Made by a program: the position numbers and the translations under genes. The notes beneath the pieces were generated by a model that ran no database searches, was not told the origin of the DNA, and worked only from the letters and a program-made list of their open reading frames with translations. A stretch of 64,000 nucleotides of DNA from an uncultured Hormoscilla sp. (GTDB lineage: Bacteria; Cyanobacteriota; Cyanobacteriia; Cyanobacteriales; Desertifilaceae), in assembly GCA_963921275.4 (NCBI GenBank), contig OZ001293.3:192001-256000 (forward strand). Reading direction: 5' to 3'. Shown one piece after another: positions 12,326 through 18,789 of the stretch. Within the stretch, counting starts at the first letter, position 1; every line of letters starts with the position of its first letter.

Positions 12326-13381
12326 TTATTTTGACTCTATCATCTGGCGGACCAAGGTGGCAAGACGATCGGCACTGTCGGGAACTGCTAGGGTTAAAGC
12401 ATTTTCCTGCATTTGAGCGAGACGATCGGGCGATCGCAGCAAGTTCAATACGGTCACCTTGAGGAGTTCGGGAGTGAGTTCTGCTTGGGGGAAAACATTG
12501 GCCGCACCCGCTGCGGCAAAGATGGCGGCATTGTAGGTTTGATGGTTGTCGGCAGCGTAGGGATAAGGGATTAAAATTGCAGGCGTCCCGGCGATCGCCA
12601 ATTCGGTCAGGGTACCGGCACCAGCGCGGGAGATGACAAGAGTCGCCGGTTGCAATAATGCTGCGACGTTGTCAGAAAATGGCATCGGAAAATATTGCCC
12701 ATGCTGCAAACTGCCCGCATCGGGGTCGTTGTCCCCAGTTAAATGGGCGATCGCCACACCTGCATCCCACCAAGCAGGGGCACATGCACGCACGAGTTTG
12801 TTAACAGGAACGGCTCCCTGAGAGCCACCGAGGACTACAATTAGGGGCATGTTTTCTTCGATGGGCAGATCTAGGGGTTGAGGGTGGTAAAATTGCGATC
12901 GCACGGGAGTACCGACATAAACAGTCCGAGCGCGACGGAGGTAAGCAGAAGCTGACTTAAACCCCAAGGCAACAGTATGACACCAGGGAGCAAATAAGCG
13001 AGTCACCCTACCGGGAAAGGCATTAGATTCGTGGAGCATAACTGGCAACCCCAAAGAACGAGCTGCTATAATCGCTGGGGCGGAAATATAACCGCCAGTG
13101 GTGAACACCCCTTTAATCTGCTGGTCCTGAAGCAGTTGTCTGCAGGTACGAATGGAACTGACCAGATGCCCCATGATTTTGAAAGTACCCAGACCAAAGC
13201 GCTGTTGAAATCCTTCGACGGCAATGCGGTGCAGGGGGTACTCTTGGGGGACGAGTTTGGTTTCCAGGCGGTTGGGGACTCCTAGCCATTGTATTTTATA
13301 GTCCTGCAGTTGCTCTGCTACTGCTAGGGCTGGAAATAGATGTCCGCCGGTGCCACTGGCGGCTATGAGTAGATTTGACAT
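12326..13381 (-). CDS. murG: MurG glycosyltransferase
   Basis: ASGTGGHLFP, HESN, GGSQGA, SRAGA, HQTYNA motifs. Confidence 0.97.
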   Translation of the reverse strand: MSNLLIAASGTGGHLFPALAVAEQLQDYKIQWLGVPNRLETKLVPQEYPLHRIAVEGFQQRFGLGTFKIMGHLVSSIRTCRQLLQDQQIKGVFTTGGYISAPAIIAARSLGLPVMLHESNAFPGRVTRLFAPWCHTVALGFKSASAYLRRARTVYVGTPVRSQFYHPQPLDLPIEENMPLIVVLGGSQGAVPVNKLVRACAPAWWDAGVAIAHLTGDNDPDAGSLQHGQYFPMPFSDNVAALLQPATLVISRAGAGTLTELAIAGTPAILIPYPYAADNHQTYNAAIFAAAGAANVFPQAELTPELLKVTVLNLLRSPDRLAQMQENALTLAVPDSADRLATLVRQMIESK

Positions 13382-13453
13382 GGAAATAGGTTCGGCTTAA
13401 GGGTTTACGTTAAGTTAGTAGAATCAGTAATCGGCTGTGAGTCAACATTAACT

Positions 13454-14284
13454 ATGCACATTTTGAGTTTATTGTCAAAGAAGTCTTCTGGTCAGGCCAG
13501 ATCGAGGCGAACAGTACGTGCGATCGCGCCCCTGTTAGTGAGTTTATCGGTTTGGCGTGCGGGGATGCTACCAGGGAGTATTGCCAGGGCCGAAACCGCC
13601 CAAACCGCCCCACCAGAGGTAATCGCGCTGCTGGCAGATCTTGATGCAGCGGCAAATAATCGTAGACTTAAGAAGCTGATGCGGTTCTATGACAATAATT
13701 TTACCAATTCTGATGGTTTGAATCGCTCCTCGATGCAACGGGTGTTAAAGCAATTGTGGTCGAGTAGCCCGCAGTTAGAATATAGCACGGAAATTATATC
13801 TTGGGAAGAGAATGATGAAGAGTTGATTCTGGAAACTGTGACGCAAATCACTGGTGTTCGGGAAATGGCTGGCAGACAGATGAATCTTATCTCTACCATC
13901 CGATCGCGCCAGCGCTTTGCCGATCGGAAGCTAGTGCAGCAGGATATTTTAGCCGAACGTACTCTGTTGACTTCTGGTGCTAACCCTCCTACTGTGGAGA
14001 TGAGATTACTGGAGCAGGTAAAAGTCAATCAGCGGTATAATCTGGATGTGATTGTCCAAGAACCCCTGGGGGATGATTTGCTGATGGGTTCTCTGATCGA
14101 GGAACCTATCAGGGCCGACAATCATTTTAAGCCAGCAACTGCGGATTTGGAGTTAATTTCTGCGGGTGGGATATTTAAGCAAGGTGTAGCACCCGGTTTG
14201 TCTGATAACCGCTGGGTTTCCGCTGTCTTTGTACGGGGGGGCGGCATTACTATGATCACTCAGCGCTTGCGCATTGTCCCGTAA
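13454..14284 (+). CDS. Conserved cyanobacterial NTF2-like secreted protein
   Basis: Signal-like N-terminus; LDAAAN...FTNSDGL NTF2-like segment; divergent from murG. Confidence 0.7.
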   Translation: MHILSLLSKKSSGQARSRRTVRAIAPLLVSLSVWRAGMLPGSIARAETAQTAPPEVIALLADLDAAANNRRLKKLMRFYDNNFTNSDGLNRSSMQRVLKQLWSSSPQLEYSTEIISWEENDEELILETVTQITGVREMAGRQMNLISTIRSRQRFADRKLVQQDILAERTLLTSGANPPTVEMRLLEQVKVNQRYNLDVIVQEPLGDDLLMGSLIEEPIRADNHFKPATADLELISAGGIFKQGVAPGLSDNRWVSAVFVRGGGITMITQRLRIVP

Positions 14285-14315
14285 TCGCCCTCGCCCGCCC
14301 ATTTTTTCGGTATTA

Positions 14316-14744
14316 TTACGCCTCAGATGCGCCCAAAAGCCGCACGGGAAAGCCTCGTCCCACTGCATTACGATAGAGGGGACCATCGAGAGTCCAGAGT
14401 TCAGCGTTCAAGGTTTCTGCTAATGCCAAGTAAGCAGCATCGTAGGCACTGCGGCGGCCCAAGGATAAGGCTATTTCCACGACTCTCGTTCCTCCTGAGA
14501 AAAGATGATAGATAATGGAAAGCTTGTTGATATAATTCCATGCTTCTGGCAATTTTTCCTGTGGGAATATTCCTGCCGCAATTAACCGTGTTAGGGAATT
14601 AGCAATTTCATAATATGCTAAGACCGGAACATGAATTTCTATCCCTTGCTCTTCCCATTCGTCGAACTGCCTCTGAACTATCGGACGGCGAGGATCTCCA
14701 TTGGCTAAAACTACTATCAGATTTGAATCGACTACAACTGCCAT
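14316..14744 (-). CDS. vapC: VapC-family PIN toxin
   Basis: VVVDSN, YEIANSL, SAYDAAYLALAE, LWTLD acidic PIN motifs. Confidence 0.9.
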   Translation of the reverse strand: MAVVVDSNLIVVLANGDPRRPIVQRQFDEWEEQGIEIHVPVLAYYEIANSLTRLIAAGIFPQEKLPEAWNYINKLSIIYHLFSGGTRVVEIALSLGRRSAYDAAYLALAETLNAELWTLDGPLYRNAVGRGFPVRLLGASEA

Positions 14745-14747
14745 CAG

Positions 14748-15017
14748 CTAAAATATCCCCCGCTGTTCTAACTGTTCCCGACTTTCTCGTACTAATTTCA
14801 CCGTATCTACTGGAGGCAGGTCTTTAGTTAGTTGACGCAGTGATTCTAGAGCCTCTTTCGGGGTCATGTGCTTCCCTTCTGGACGCGGCAGATAGAGGTT
14901 AATCATTTTCGCTGCCATCCCTTCTGGTGTCGTCTTGAATTTTTCCGCTTCCCATTCCAGATACTTCCAGTCTTCTGCTGGTATTTCTATGGTAATCTTT
15001 TTTACTTCTTTGCTCAT
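14748..15017 (-). CDS. Putative antitoxin, copy 1 (toxin-proximal)
   Basis: 89 aa, 3 bp upstream of vapC; RHH-like N-terminus (ITIEIPAEDWKYLEWEA), VapB-like C-terminus (DTVKLVRESRE). Confidence 0.75.
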   Translation of the reverse strand: MSKEVKKITIEIPAEDWKYLEWEAEKFKTTPEGMAAKMINLYLPRPEGKHMTPKEALESLRQLTKDLPPVDTVKLVRESREQLEQRGIF

Positions 15018-15046
15018 TTTTCTTTCCTCAATATACTCCTCTCGTC

Positions 15047-15075
15047 ATTCTAACCACATTGCACCTTGTTGTCAA
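15047..15075 (-). promoter_or_regulatory. Sigma70-type promoter of copy 1
   Basis: TTGACA-17 bp-TAGAAT. Confidence 0.7.
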
Positions 15076-15085
15076 GGTCTTTCGG

Positions 15086-15370
15086 CTAAAATATCCCCCG
15101 CTGTTCTAACTGTTCCCGGCTCTCTCCTACTAATTTTACCGCATCGATCGTCGGCAGGTCTTTGCCAGGCATGTCTTTGCGTAGTTGACGCAGTGACTCT
15201 AAAGCCTCCTTAAAAGTCCCGGGCTTCTCTTCTGGACGCGGCAGGTAGAGGTTAATCATTTTCGCTGCGATCGCTTCTGGTGTCGTCTTGAATTTTTTCG
15301 CTTCCCATTCTAGATACTTCCAATCTTCTGCTGGTATTTCGATGGTAATCGTTTTTACTTCTTTGCTCAT
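15086..15370 (-). CDS. Putative antitoxin, copy 2
   Basis: Paralog of copy 1 with variant segment EEKPGTFKEAL...KDMPGKDLPTIDA. Confidence 0.75.
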   Translation of the reverse strand: MSKEVKTITIEIPAEDWKYLEWEAKKFKTTPEAIAAKMINLYLPRPEEKPGTFKEALESLRQLRKDMPGKDLPTIDAVKLVGESREQLEQRGIF

Positions 15371-15394
15371 CTTTCTTTCCTCAATCTACTCCTC

Positions 15395-15423
15395 ATTATA
15401 ACCGCATCTCACCTTGTTTTCAA
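15395..15423 (-). promoter_or_regulatory. Sigma70-type promoter of copy 2
   Basis: TTGAAA-17 bp-TATAAT. Confidence 0.7.
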
Positions 15424-15433
15424 GGTCTTTCGG

Positions 15434-15700
15434 CTAAAATATCCCCCGCTGTTCTAACTCTTCCCGACTCTCTCGTACTAATTTTACCGTATCTACTGCT
15501 GGAATGTCCTTGCCTAGTTCATAGAGCCGCAATAGCGCTTCATCGGGATCCATTCGCACCTCAGTCCGAGGCAGGTATATCCTCATCATTTTCGCTGCGA
15601 TCGCTTCTGGTGTCGTCTTGAATTTTTCCGCTTCCCATTCCAGATACTTCCAGTCTTCTGCTGGTATTTCGATGGTAATTGTTTTTACTTCTTTGCTCAT
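15434..15700 (-). CDS. Putative antitoxin, copy 3
   Basis: Paralog with the most divergent segment MRIYLPRTEVRMDPDEALLRLYELGKDIPAV. Confidence 0.75.
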   Translation of the reverse strand: MSKEVKTITIEIPAEDWKYLEWEAEKFKTTPEAIAAKMMRIYLPRTEVRMDPDEALLRLYELGKDIPAVDTVKLVRESREELEQRGIF

Positions 15701-15729
15701 CTTCCTTTCTTCGATATACTCTTCTCATC

Positions 15730-15758
15730 ATTATAACCGCATCTCACCTTGTTTTCAA
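15730..15758 (-). promoter_or_regulatory. Sigma70-type promoter of copy 3
   Basis: TTGAAA-17 bp-TATAAT. Confidence 0.7.
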
Positions 15759-15768
15759 GGTCTTTCGG

Positions 15769-16038
15769 CTAAAATATCCCCTGCTGTTCTAACTGTTCCC
15801 GACTCTCTCGTACTAATTTCACCGTATCTACCGGAGGCAGGTCTTCAGTTAGTTGACGCAGTGACTCTAGAGCCTCCTTAAAAGTCATGTGCTTCCCTTC
15901 TGGACGCGGCAGGTAGAGGTTAATCATTTTCGCTGCCATTGTTTCTGGTGTCGTCTTGAATTTTTCTGCTTCCCATTCCAGATACTTCCAGTCTTCTGCT
16001 GGTATTTCGATGGTAATTGTTTTTACTTCTTTGCTCAT
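15769..16038 (-). CDS. Putative antitoxin, copy 4
   Basis: Paralog closest to copy 1. Confidence 0.75.
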   Translation of the reverse strand: MSKEVKTITIEIPAEDWKYLEWEAEKFKTTPETMAAKMINLYLPRPEGKHMTFKEALESLRQLTEDLPPVDTVKLVRESREQLEQQGIF

Positions 16039-16055
16039 CTTTCTCTCCCAATTAT

Positions 16056-16084
16056 ATGATAACTACATCTCACCTTGTTGTCAA
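16056..16084 (-). promoter_or_regulatory. Sigma70-type promoter of copy 4
   Basis: TTGACA-17 bp-TATCAT. Confidence 0.65.
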
Positions 16085-16109
16085 GGACTTGCTGAATGTA
16101 CAGGCGATC

Positions 16110-16260
16110 GGGTGCATCTCACTTTTGCCTCGCCACCACCGCCGGAACCCTGAAGGGTCCGGCTACAGGAACAAAGCCGCCTGCTTCGATGTCTCGGAAG
16201 AGCGCTATTCGCACTACTCCCGAGACATCGAGGGCTAGATTACAAAATAGAGATGCTCCC
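16110..16260. mobile_element. MITE with 9-bp target-site duplication
   Basis: Ends gggtgcatctc / gagatgctccc; caggcgatc duplicated at 16101-16109 and 16261-16269; contains a REP and a palindromic repeat. Confidence 0.75.
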
Positions 16261-16278
16261 CAGGCGATCGCCTCAATT

Positions 16279-16683
16279 TTATGTTCTGAGCCAGTTTTCT
16301 ACAGTCAGTCCCTGAACCCTCAACATATCTGAATCATCGGAAACCAGAATTAAGTTGTGTGCTATTGCTGTCGCCGCTATCAAGATATCTGCATCTTGGA
16401 TCGGTCTTCCTTTTCGTTTCAAGTCGGCATAAATTTCGGACGCTCTCGCGATTATTTCTAGATCGTCCAATAATAAAACTTGCGCTTCTTGGCAGAGAAC
16501 AAGAAAATCGGATATTTTCCTGGTAGCATTGACAGCCAGCAGCCCTCTTTTCACCTCATAGTAGGTGATGCAACTCATATACAATCCTTGTCTTTGGTTC
16601 CGCAGTTCCTGAATCTTTTGTTCGATCCTTTGATTATTCTTCAAAATCGCCGTGACGATATTCGTATCCAGCAGATAACTCAC
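16279..16683 (-). CDS. vapC: VapC-family PIN toxin (second)
   Basis: YLLDTNI, ITYYEVKRG, DADILIAATA, LVSDD motifs. Confidence 0.9.
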   Translation of the reverse strand: MSYLLDTNIVTAILKNNQRIEQKIQELRNQRQGLYMSCITYYEVKRGLLAVNATRKISDFLVLCQEAQVLLLDDLEIIARASEIYADLKRKGRPIQDADILIAATAIAHNLILVSDDSDMLRVQGLTVENWLRT

Positions 16684-16688
16684 TTTCT

Positions 16689-16985
16689 CTATCTCCCAGC
16701 AACTGCGGCATCAAAAATTTCCATCTCTTCCGGAGTCAAATCAGCTAACAACCCAGACATCGCCTTAAATACCATGATATCCTTCATGATGCTGGTCAGC
16801 TCATCATCGGGAATTTCCATCACTTGTTCGGGGGTCCATGTCTCTAACATCCCGTCTGATAACATTTTACTCATTTCCGCTGGGTCGAATTTCTGGAATA
16901 TGCTTTTGCTTTGAATCAAGTTCGAGACTATCTCTGAGATGCGGGTTCTTACTTCACCGGTCATGTCTACAGCAGTTTTGTTCAT
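16689..16985 (-). CDS. Putative antitoxin
   Basis: 98-aa acidic protein 5 bp upstream of vapC; ends GLLADLTPEEMEIFDAAV. Confidence 0.65.
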   Translation of the reverse strand: MNKTAVDMTGEVRTRISEIVSNLIQSKSIFQKFDPAEMSKMLSDGMLETWTPEQVMEIPDDELTSIMKDIMVFKAMSGLLADLTPEEMEIFDAAVAGR

Positions 16986-17102
16986 AAGTCCTCCTAGTTG
17001 ACGATCGCGAAACGGACTCTCGCATCGAGTGCTTCTTTGATTATAGCTTACTTTTGCTCTTGCATCCTAATGTCAGTTATTTTCCCACCAGGTTTCGTTC
17101 CT

Positions 17103-17202
17103 GATGCTGTTGGCGAATTGGGAGAAAGCCAAATTTATCGTTGATGCTGTCTACCGTAGAAAAGGGGTTTCAGAGAATTAAACTGATTTCGCCAACAGCA
17201 TC
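17103..17202. mobile_element. 100-bp MITE-like insertion
   Basis: Perfect 15-bp inverted ends gatgctgttggcgaa / ttcgccaacagcatc. Confidence 0.55.
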
Positions 17203-17275
17203 CATGCCTCAACCCAACCTACGGGCGATGAAATTTTTATTATGGGCATTTAATCGGACATGATATAACCTCACA

Positions 17276-17611
17276 TTAGACAGAGCCATATTCAGTGTAC
17301 TGTCGCTTGTAGGGAGGCTGCAACCCGAGGACGATATCCTCTTTAGGGACTCCCATTGCAACTAATTCTTCTGCTGGATTTCGATCGGTTAAATTCTGTT
17401 GAAGCCAGATTTTACCATCTTTAATATCAAAGTGTATCACACATCGATAGACGCGATTAAGATGCTGCCACCCCACATTCATCCATTGATAATGATCTCG
17501 AACTGTGTCCAAGATCAGTTGAACCTCCACTTGGTCATCCGAGATATCGTTACTAGCGTAACGAGTCAACAGATTCTGAATATACTCCCGATATTTTGTT
17601 ATCTTCTCCAT
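17276..17611 (-). CDS. xisI: XisI protein
   Basis: DTVRDHYQWMNVGW, HFDIKDGKIWLQQN, GVPKEDIVLG. Confidence 0.92.
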   Translation of the reverse strand: MEKITKYREYIQNLLTRYASNDISDDQVEVQLILDTVRDHYQWMNVGWQHLNRVYRCVIHFDIKDGKIWLQQNLTDRNPAEELVAMGVPKEDIVLGLQPPYKRQYTEYGSV

Positions 17612-18012
17612 TGCACAATCACCTCATTAACTGGATCGTATACAATTAGCCAAATCTGATATAATTGTATTGCCGCTTGGGTAAACTCCAATTGAAAAAA
17701 TGTTTCATATGCATCCAATGGAACCGCCAAGTAGAGCGCCCTTTCAGGTTCAGTGTCTGACAATCCCAGGCGGTAACTAAGGAACTGACCCAAAGCGGGG
17801 TAGAAGTCTGTAATTGCAGAGGGATTGAGAAAGCTCTTGATCTCAACTGCTATTTTTTCACCCTCTCTCTCTGCTGCTACTATTCTTTCTAAGGCCAGAT
17901 CGACCTGAAAATTGACGTTACCATATTGAAACCTCAGTGGATCGTCTGTGATTGTCCACCGTTCTTTTTGAAGAGCTTGTTTTACTGCTTCGTGGAACTT
18001 ATCCTTAAACAT
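17599..18012 (-). CDS. xisH: XisH protein
   Basis: KDKFHEAVKQALQKERWTITDDPL, IAVEIKSF, ALGQFLSYR; overlaps xisI. Confidence 0.9.
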   Translation of the reverse strand: MFKDKFHEAVKQALQKERWTITDDPLRFQYGNVNFQVDLALERIVAAEREGEKIAVEIKSFLNPSAITDFYPALGQFLSYRLGLSDTEPERALYLAVPLDAYETFFQLEFTQAAIQLYQIWLIVYDPVNEVIVQWRR

Positions 18013-18204
18013 ATTGATGAGATCGAGCCTTTTGATTATTTTACCCGATATCTTGCACTATCAATAGTTTGTAATACTTCGTAGGTTTTGCATGGCGGCA
18101 GGTACATTTGTCATTGCGAGGGTCGTGTCCAGAGATACCACCCATGTCACGCGCGAAAGCGTGACAGGGTGGTACTCTCGGACACGAGGGGGTACTCCGC
18201 AGCT

Positions 18205-18284
18205 TGCGAGCAATAGGGTTACACCGTGCGAGCAATAGGGTTACACCGGTGCGAGCAGTAAGGTTACACCGGTGCGAGCAATAA
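18205..18284. repeat. Tandem 22-23 bp repeat (tgcgagcaatagggttacaccg), ~3.5 copies
   Basis: Directly visible. Confidence 0.85.
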
Positions 18285-18424
18285 CCTCATAGCGGGTGTG
18301 GTCTTGCACTAGTTGGTATGGCATCAAGGGTACTGTGACCGAGATTGCGCTCTCAAGAGAACTGCCCATCTTGAATCTACAGAAGTTTTTCTTGTCATTA
18401 GCTATTTCAACAGCACAACGCAGC

Positions 18425-18453
18425 TTGACAATAAGCCATTGTTGGCTTACAAT
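18425..18453 (+). promoter_or_regulatory. Sigma70-type promoter at the head of the 21-bp array
   Basis: TTGACA-17 bp-TACAAT. Confidence 0.6.
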
Positions 18454-18685
18454 AAACTATTGCTGGCTTACAATAAACTATTGCTGGCTTACAGCGAATC
18501 ATTCACTGGCTTACAATAAGCTATTGCTGGCTTACAATAAGCTATTGTTGACTTATAATAAGCTATTGCTGGCTTACAATAAGCTATTGTTGGCTTACAA
18601 TAAGCTATTGTTGGCTTACAATAAGCTATTGTTGGCTTACTGTTGGCTTACAATAAGCTATTGTAAACCTATTGTAAACCTATTG
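18431..18685. repeat. 21-bp tandem array (ataagctattgYtggcttaca), ~10-11 copies
   Basis: Directly visible; no unique spacers. Confidence 0.95.
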
Positions 18686-18789
18686 GGTGTTACAATTTTC
18701 TGACACTCGGCGCCAGCAGCCGCTCCCAAAATCGCCGTGCCGGGCACGGCGACACCGTAATTCAAATAGAGATAAACAAAGAGGAAAAA

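Follow-up and report, generated by a model that had tools for sequence, protein, structure and literature searches.

A tandem array of antitoxin genes with mosaic middle segments precedes a single VapC-type toxin gene in a sponge-associated cyanobacterium

Main finding

In the genome of an uncultured Hormoscilla sp., a sponge-associated cyanobacterium, we analyzed a stretch of 64 kb (contig OZ001293.3, positions 192,001 to 256,000; called the window below, with all positions counted from its first letter). A single gene for a PIN-domain toxin of the VapC type is preceded there, on the minus strand, by four antitoxin genes in tandem (14316-16090). We propose that this is a type II toxin-antitoxin (TA) locus of the vapBC type whose antitoxin gene became a tandem array of variable copy number, in which allele turnover and unequal crossing-over left behind orphan antitoxins of other specificity types; we see an even chance that this account is right. 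The 7.03-Mb genome that holds the window (G000) was compared with the genomes of congeneric species (G001-G004).

Organization of the array

An earlier note on this DNA had described four tandem units of about 340 bp, each with an intact open reading frame (ORF) of 88-94 amino acids (aa) and with its own promoter, whose -35 and -10 elements stand 17 bp apart, and a single toxin gene after the last unit. It had also reported near-invariant ends of the encoded proteins and sharply differing segments between them. This description was borne out by our analysis. Each unit consists of a promoter-like site, a palindrome and an intact ORF of 88-94 aa; the spacing from start to start is 353, 330 and 338 bp, and the four aligned units have a mean column identity of 86% at the DNA level. 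At the protein level, copies 2, 3 and 4 are 76%, 85% and 94% identical to copy 1, respectively. Residues 1-32 differ at two positions only among the four copies, the final 19 residues hardly vary, and the variable segments that the note had quoted from the part in between are correct. One intact PIN ORF of 142 aa (14316-14744, minus strand), which carries the allele that we call A, follows the array.

All four antitoxin genes lie on the minus strand, and their middle segments fall into the types a, b and c. Copy 1 (15769-16038; 89 aa) is of type a. Copy 2 (15434-15700; 88 aa) is of type b, and copy 3 (15086-15370; 94 aa) is of type c and has 5 residues inserted behind helix 3. Copy 4 (14748-15017; 89 aa) is again of type a; this copy, the nearest to the toxin gene and presumably the cognate VapB, ends with a stop codon 4 nucleotides (nt) ahead of the ATG of the PIN gene.

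The promoter-like sites are sigma-70-like, match 11 of 12 positions with a 17-nt spacer, and stand at an equal offset in every unit. They read TTGACA-17 nt-TATCAT in P1 (16056-16084), TTGAAA-17 nt-TATAAT in both P2 (15730-15758) and P3 (15395-15423), and TTGACA-17 nt-TAGAAT in P4 (15047-15075), all on the minus strand. A promoter scan of the region returned 8 sites, compared to 4.1 +/- 1.4 in shuffled sequences, and the four sites of the array were the best four. Every -35 hexamer is enclosed by a palindrome of the form CCTTG-N4-CAAGG, which in P1 reads CCTTGACAACAAGG and overlaps the hexamer at 16073-16086; its counterparts lie at 15747-15760 (P2), 15412-15425 (P3) and 15064-15077 (P4). This palindrome occurs 4 times in the window, always within the array, where 0.09 occurrences would be expected, and it may represent an operator for autoregulation. 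We found no terminator-like site between the copies on the minus strand, and a search of positions 13000-18500 with Rfam gave 0 matches.

No antitoxin copies other than those of the array are present in the whole 7.03-Mb genome. Read depth was checked with a sequencing run that contains 0.91 of the sampled words and that may be the source sample. The contig pieces unique to each of the four copies are covered at a depth of 59-64, compared to 54.5 in the flank; this even depth, together with the presence of arrays in three independent assemblies, rules out an assembly artefact. In runs X5, X6 and X8 the array was partly without read cover, from which we conclude nothing.

Mosaic structure of the antitoxin middle segment

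We counted synonymous (pS) and nonsynonymous (pN) differences by the method of Nei and Gojobori, taking codons 39-70 as the middle segment. In this segment type b differs from all the other copies with pS values of 0.67-0.75 and pN values of 0.33-0.41. The N segment has pS values of 0.05-0.33 and the C segment, within G000, of 0.08-0.23, with pN values of 0-0.07 in both flanks; the baseline measured on the flanking gene between G000 and G004 is pS = 0.090 and pN = 0.043. As judged from these counts, type b is an old allele or an import set within homogenized flanks. The earlier note had described the copies as diversified, with sharply differing segments. A sharp diversification in place did not stand: pN/pS is about 0.5 at saturated pS, and in-place diversifying selection was rejected as the source of type b.

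Copy 2 and the antitoxin closest to the PIN gene in G004 are identical proteins. Across the 57 codons (171 nt) that make up the middle and C segments, their genes show 0 differences; the N segment has 4 synonymous and 0 nonsynonymous ones. Such identity of the b cassette between the two species would fit either recent exchange or strong constraint. A plasmid or phage that carries the cassettes was not found; the antitoxin was unmatched in plasmids, and a plasmid search with the PIN sequence gave matches only at 36% identity, on two Rhodothermus plasmids.

The middle segment is itself a mosaic, whose sub-segments assort independently. In copy 2 of G003 the middle starts as type c and continues into an a-type loop; copy 1 of both G003 and G004 shows the converse combination. 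The four-gamete test failed for 234 of the 1378 informative site pairs, and 0 of 2000 permutations were as strongly clustered along the sequence as the data; when type b is left out, 164 of 435 pairs still fail, with a clustering that is not significant (697 of 2000 permutations reach it). The homogenized flanks and mosaic sub-segments thus uncovered by the two methods agree with the earlier suggestion that conserved flanks allow recombinational swapping. The N segment has a pN/pS of about 0.1-0.2, compared to about 0.4-0.5 in the flanking gene. This level of sequence comparison shows that purifying selection acts on the antitoxin copies.

The VapC toxin gene

The PIN ORF matched the Pfam PIN model with E = 8e-8 (33.4 bits, cutoff 23.6). 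When 64 homologues were aligned, the acidic residues D6, E46 and D102 were invariant and D120 was nearly so. The predicted structure (predicted local distance difference test, pLDDT, 93.9) gave PIN/VapC fold matches, 18 of them at E<=1e-3, the nearest folds being PAE0151, PAE2754 and the VapC chains of solved VapBC and FitAB complexes. Among the solved complexes we found none close to the locus, the best PIN match by sequence being PAE0151 alone. The PIN clade is common, with 581 matches at E<=1e-5. At the level of its genes, the locus has the features of VapBC systems, namely a PIN toxin with conserved acidic residues and a small, co-oriented antitoxin gene 4 nt upstream.

We considered whether the extra copies serve other PIN paralogues of the genome, and rejected this possibility. 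The only notable paralogue in G000, which is 38% identical (G000:C1:3954552-3954914; locus L006, 1462-1944), no longer has its N-terminal part and with it the first acidic residue, and the unrelated 98-aa antitoxin upstream of it is also gone. No other intact PIN of the array's clade was found in G000. In G002 the orthologous pair of the paralogue is intact (L021, 1193-1914), and the remnant in G000 provides an example of TA decay within this genome.

A matching cassette in VapC and the pairing of types

Codons 13-33 of the PIN gene (14646-14708, minus strand), which encode the end of helix 1, a loop and helix 2, form an allelic cassette that is anciently diverged in G004. Between G004 and the other three genomes this cassette has pS values of 0.88-0.96 and pN values of 0.36-0.41, and the rest of the gene has pS values of 0.03-0.28. 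Three types of this patch (A, B and C) are found among close PIN homologues.

When the antitoxin next to the PIN gene is compared with the PIN type, G000 and G002 both show the pair a-A, G003 an a-type loop beside A', and G004 the pair b-B. On one contig from a metagenome, 76 unlike letters connect a c-type ORF to the PIN; they coincide with the gap together with PIN codons 1-24. In addition, the type c and PIN-C proteins occur on an equal number of contigs, and the longest contigs are of equal size. Sequences of the outgroup resemble b and B, so that b-B looks ancestral-like and a-A derived. Charges counted by hand on the sequences are about -3 for b and about +3 for B, about 0 for a and about -2 for A, and about 0 for c and about -3 for C. 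The antitoxin type beside VapC thus tracks the VapC type in the congeners, an association that is suggestive and not statistical because the lineages are few and related.

The earlier note had interpreted the array as a poly-antitoxin cassette that protects against several VapC variants, in analogy to orphan immunity arrays. One part of this idea stands: as the analogy predicts, the middle types correspond to PIN allele types of congeners, copy 2 being the very antitoxin that accompanies the PIN gene of G004, where the toxin allele differs at the matching segment. The other part, present protection against variants, finds less in its favor, with no other intact PIN of the clade in the genome and with upstream copies that are damaged in two congeners.

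The antitoxin family

The repeated ORFs gave no match at threshold with Pfam, NCBIfam or PADLOC models (0 PADLOC families for 7 proteins). The best NCBIfam VapB scores, such as that of NF050799 (TA_anti_VapB_Sulfo), were 13.5-15.8 bits, compared to a cutoff of 60, and spanned no more than the 28 C-terminal residues. The family is rare: among 5.8 billion proteins, 7 close relatives were retrieved by a word-based search, and an exhaustive profile search of 1.84 billion representatives placed 73 clusters in the family at E<=1e-3. A metagenome scan with the antitoxin alignment gave 280 pattern matches, none of which is a relative.

The model of the antitoxin (pLDDT 84.7) has helices at residues 14-26, 31-42, 53-64 and 72-86. 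In a Foldseek search it matched nothing at E<=1e-3; ribbon-helix-helix (RHH) proteins dominate the weak matches, with deviations of 1.3-2.8 A over 38-45 columns. Across the family, weak matches to RHH models were obtained for NikA-like (15 of 43 members) and RHH_1 (9 of 43, best E = 5.5e-6), and the family profile matched RHH chains of CopG and PutA with E of about 0.01-0.02; the four copies of the window themselves have no RHH match in Pfam even at E<=1. These weak signals are consistent with an RHH-like N-terminus ahead of a two-helix C-terminal module.

At 9 of 14 distant loci that hold a family member, the same PIN clade lies directly downstream, and in four of those nine the C-terminal module sits on a different N-terminus, which weakly resembles DUF2281/Unstab_antitox. 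By this gene context, the C-terminal two helices are a toxin-linked module, in keeping with the earlier note, which had named the C-terminal region of VapB proteins as the part that binds the toxin.

Two further observations concern members of the family. In other cyanobacteria (L013 1471-1743, L014, L027 1474-1722, L029 1495-1755), the DNA-binding part has been shuffled and the C-terminal two-helix module kept. A family member of 87 aa without a PIN gene downstream (L012 1498-2067, minus strand) directly follows a 98-aa ORF that, by eye, resembles an antitoxin of the Phd/YefM type, and the two may be an orphan antitoxin pair.

Copy number across the genus

The syntenic site holds 4 copies in G000, 1 in G002, 2 in G003 and 2 in G004, and no array copy was found in G001, a genome that is 93% complete. 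The source names attached to close homologues likewise assign the locus to Hormoscilla. In G003, a 4-nt insertion shifts the frame of copy 1 in its C-terminal part. The stop codon of copy 1 is missing in G004, where the PIN gene also has a frameshift at the fourth acidic residue.

The internal junctions of the arrays in G000, G003 and G004 are identical, with a breakpoint just past the stop codon. The single copy of G002 has an internal-type leader fused to the flank sequence, which indicates that it was derived by deletion. Thus, the common junction and the G002 leader together show, by sequence, that one ancestral duplication predates these species and was followed by later expansions and deletions, i.e. 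that the array has a single origin and a dynamic copy number. Among 60 relatives, 7 of which carry the family, tandem copies occur within the genus only; among 400 other sampled genomes of the class, the family is present in 9 and in tandem in none. The array is thus genus-specific among the genomes searched.

Proposed mechanism

The account that we propose begins with the ancestral duplication of a unit made of promoter, palindrome and antitoxin ORF, with its junction just past the stop codon, after which unequal crossing-over altered the copy number. Near-identity of the promoter, the last helix and the RHH-like N-terminus is maintained by gene conversion. Linker, helix 3 and loop make up a segment of which no fewer than three old allelic types (a, b, c) exist, and these recombine as sub-cassettes; in VapC, the helix 1-helix 2 patch is an old allelic cassette as well. 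Copy 4 would be the cognate neutralizer of the resident VapC allele A. Copies 2 and 3 would represent antitoxins of the allele types B and C that were left in place or taken up when strains exchanged toxin alleles by homologous recombination. A recombinant that lost the old antitoxin while the old toxin protein persisted would be poisoned, and survivors would be those that kept it. All copies probably bind a common operator; they may form heterodimers through their identical RHH parts and add to antitoxin dosage. The extra types would in addition pre-empt toxin alleles that circulate in the population, as in anti-addiction.

A more specific version of this idea, which we consider rather unlikely, is an 'addiction ratchet', in which an allele could be replaced with survival only if the old antitoxin gene were kept. 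Antitoxins would in this way pile up upstream, record past turnovers and provide standing immunity, and specificity would reside in the helix-3 cassette of the antitoxin and the helix-2 cassette of VapC, both kept distinct amid gene conversion.

Several points weigh against the account of orphan antitoxins of other specificities. The last helix, which is likely a main toxin contact, is identical in the copies, and all four may neutralize any allele, in which case specificity would be moot. Copy 1 repeats type a, which sequential displacement does not explain. The association of types rests on about 5 related, non-independent lineages (five species genomes and a few metagenome fragments), and our searches yielded neither a B or C toxin allele nor a plasmid or phage counterpart. 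Divergent segments can also escape gene conversion mechanically, without selection. Finally, extra copies are absent from G002, and of the upstream copies, that of G003 is damaged by a frameshift and that of G004 altered through loss of the stop codon; such damage in two congeners indicates that protection is not obligatory.

Alternative explanations

The main alternative is one of dosage or redundancy, where the four copies neutralize the resident VapC equally and the array raises the ratio of antitoxin to toxin. Read-through would give several antitoxin cistrons per toxin cistron, and a toxin that burdens a host-restricted symbiont would thereby be silenced, as a step towards loss of the system. 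The invariance of the RHH part and of the last helix in all copies and the lack of a terminator-like site between them on the minus strand are both in line with this, and so is the erosion of the PIN elsewhere, with a frameshift at its fourth acidic residue in G004 and a shortened protein in another strain (P0103). The neighboring TA locus points the same way, its antitoxin being duplicated in G002, G004 and probably G003 and its PIN frameshifted in G002 and G004, as does the flanking gene, whose pN/pS of about 0.4-0.5 indicates relaxed selection. However, dosage alone leaves unexplained why old, distinct middle types are kept, with type b identical across species, and why VapC has a matching old cassette; moreover, a stronger promoter would be a simpler route to the same result, and the toxin is intact in G000. 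Taken together, we regard dosage as somewhat unlikely to be the explanation.

In a second alternative, the array is a neutral by-product, in which unequal crossing-over and allele recombination in a repeat-rich genome left functionless passenger copies that drift to decay. This would accommodate a copy number that ranges from 0 to 4 among five species, the frameshift in copy 1 of G003, the missing stop codon of copy 1 of G004, and incompatible site pairs so pervasive that they make up 164 of 435 even without type b. It is improbable when set against the intactness of all four G000 copies, with promoter-like sites that match at 11 of 12 positions, and against the low pN/pS of the N segment relative to the flanking gene. 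Type b, with its 0 nonsynonymous changes relative to G004, and the comparison of copy 3 with copy 1 of G004 (both non-proximal, and of uncertain orthology), which gave about 15 synonymous and 10 nonsynonymous differences and a pN/pS of about 0.2, also speak against decay. A third alternative, that the copies are mainly RHH repressors whose heterodimers tune the operon or other genes and do not neutralize the toxin, would suit the identical RHH-like N-termini and the palindrome repeated at all four promoter-like sites, but is very improbable given that the palindrome is nowhere else in the 64-kb window and that the C-terminal module is conserved family-wide and PIN-linked even on other N-terminal domains.

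Comparison with known systems

The closest known systems are the RHH-type VapBC and FitAB modules, such as VapBC26 (5x3t) and VapBC15 (4chg) of M. tuberculosis and FitAB (2bsq) of N. gonorrhoeae. As in these, a PIN toxin directly follows a small antitoxin, whose N-terminus is here weakly RHH-like and whose C-terminal part is helical, and the promoter holds a palindrome; the fold matches of the PIN model include VapC chains from solved complexes of this kind, and RHH antitoxins prevail among the weak matches of the antitoxin model. In contrast, the locus described here has four antitoxin genes with their own promoter-like sites instead of one, and the antitoxins have no Pfam or NCBIfam match at threshold.

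With regard to arrays, PMC5361080 describes orphan immunity gene arrays in type VI secretion system (T6SS) clusters of V. cholerae that were formed by sequential effector displacement. There too, one toxin gene is accompanied by several immunity-type genes in a row, the extras are similar to genes that serve as cognate immunity genes for the toxin alleles of other strains, homologous recombination has produced a mosaic structure, and the length of the array varies among relatives (PMC5361080). The locus described here differs in that the toxin is an intracellular TA toxin and not a secreted effector, the extras lie upstream with their own promoter-like sites, and segments differ instead of whole genes (PMC5361080). 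The selective logic would also be another one, namely survival of allele replacement under addiction.

Orphan antitoxins without a cognate toxin in the genome have been proposed to neutralize related incoming toxins (anti-addiction), a role for TA loci and orphan antitoxins that is plausible and rarely demonstrated, according to PMC7354431. The orphans described there are scattered solitary genes or remnants, whereas those of the array are tandem paralogues in an active-looking operon; the same review mentions that toxSAS systems, whose toxins belong to a different family (alarmone synthetases), have several antitoxins per toxin, i.e. more than one antitoxin gene per toxin as in the array (PMC7354431). 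Our full-text literature search, whose coverage lies outside subscription journals, returned no description of tandem paralogous antitoxin arrays, and likewise no literature on Hormoscilla together with toxin-antitoxin systems. To our knowledge, the several antitoxins of toxSAS systems are not paralogues.

If the account of orphan antitoxins is true, the locus would offer a compact natural system for the study of how TA specificity is encoded and exchanged, in which near-identical backbones carry three types of antitoxin cassette and three types of VapC patch. It would also add to the evidence on why chromosomal TA loci and orphan antitoxins persist, through selection by allele turnover and anti-addiction, and the addiction ratchet would be the intracellular TA counterpart of the orphan-immunity arrays of T6SS and contact-dependent inhibition (CDI) systems. 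Even under the dosage alternative, the two adjacent loci would illustrate a route by which a host-restricted symbiont disarms its TA toxins, with the antitoxin amplified first and the toxin eroding later.

Neighborhood of the array

A second TA locus lies next to the array on the minus strand (16279-16985), and consists of a 98-aa antitoxin and a 134-aa PIN protein (Pfam PIN, 3.9e-16). The antitoxin is single in G000. In the congeners (L008 260-1399, L010 249-1371, L009 2-927), two tandem antitoxins are present in G002 and G004, and in G003 a second, partial copy stands at the edge of the locus; both G002 and G004 have a frameshift in the PIN gene of this locus. The differences between the two antitoxin copies of G004 lie mostly in their middle (about aa 30-50), a recurrence of the pattern seen in the main array.

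Between the array and this locus, positions 16100-16260 hold a short, hairpin-rich, multi-copy element that looks like a miniature inverted-repeat transposable element (MITE) or a repeat of the repetitive extragenic palindromic (REP) type. It has at least 45 matches in the genome at E<=1e-3, for the best 40 of 346 first-look candidates scored. Contig depth over the element is 197-1519 in four runs, compared to 12-54 in the flanks.

Just upstream of both TA loci, overlapping genes for XisI (1.6e-45) and XisH (2.1e-53) occupy positions 17276-18012 on the minus strand. Further on, a plus-strand ORF (18296-18703) encodes repeated heptad-like units (LAYNKLL and similar), and the underlying DNA therefore contains a tandem repeat of about 21 nt.

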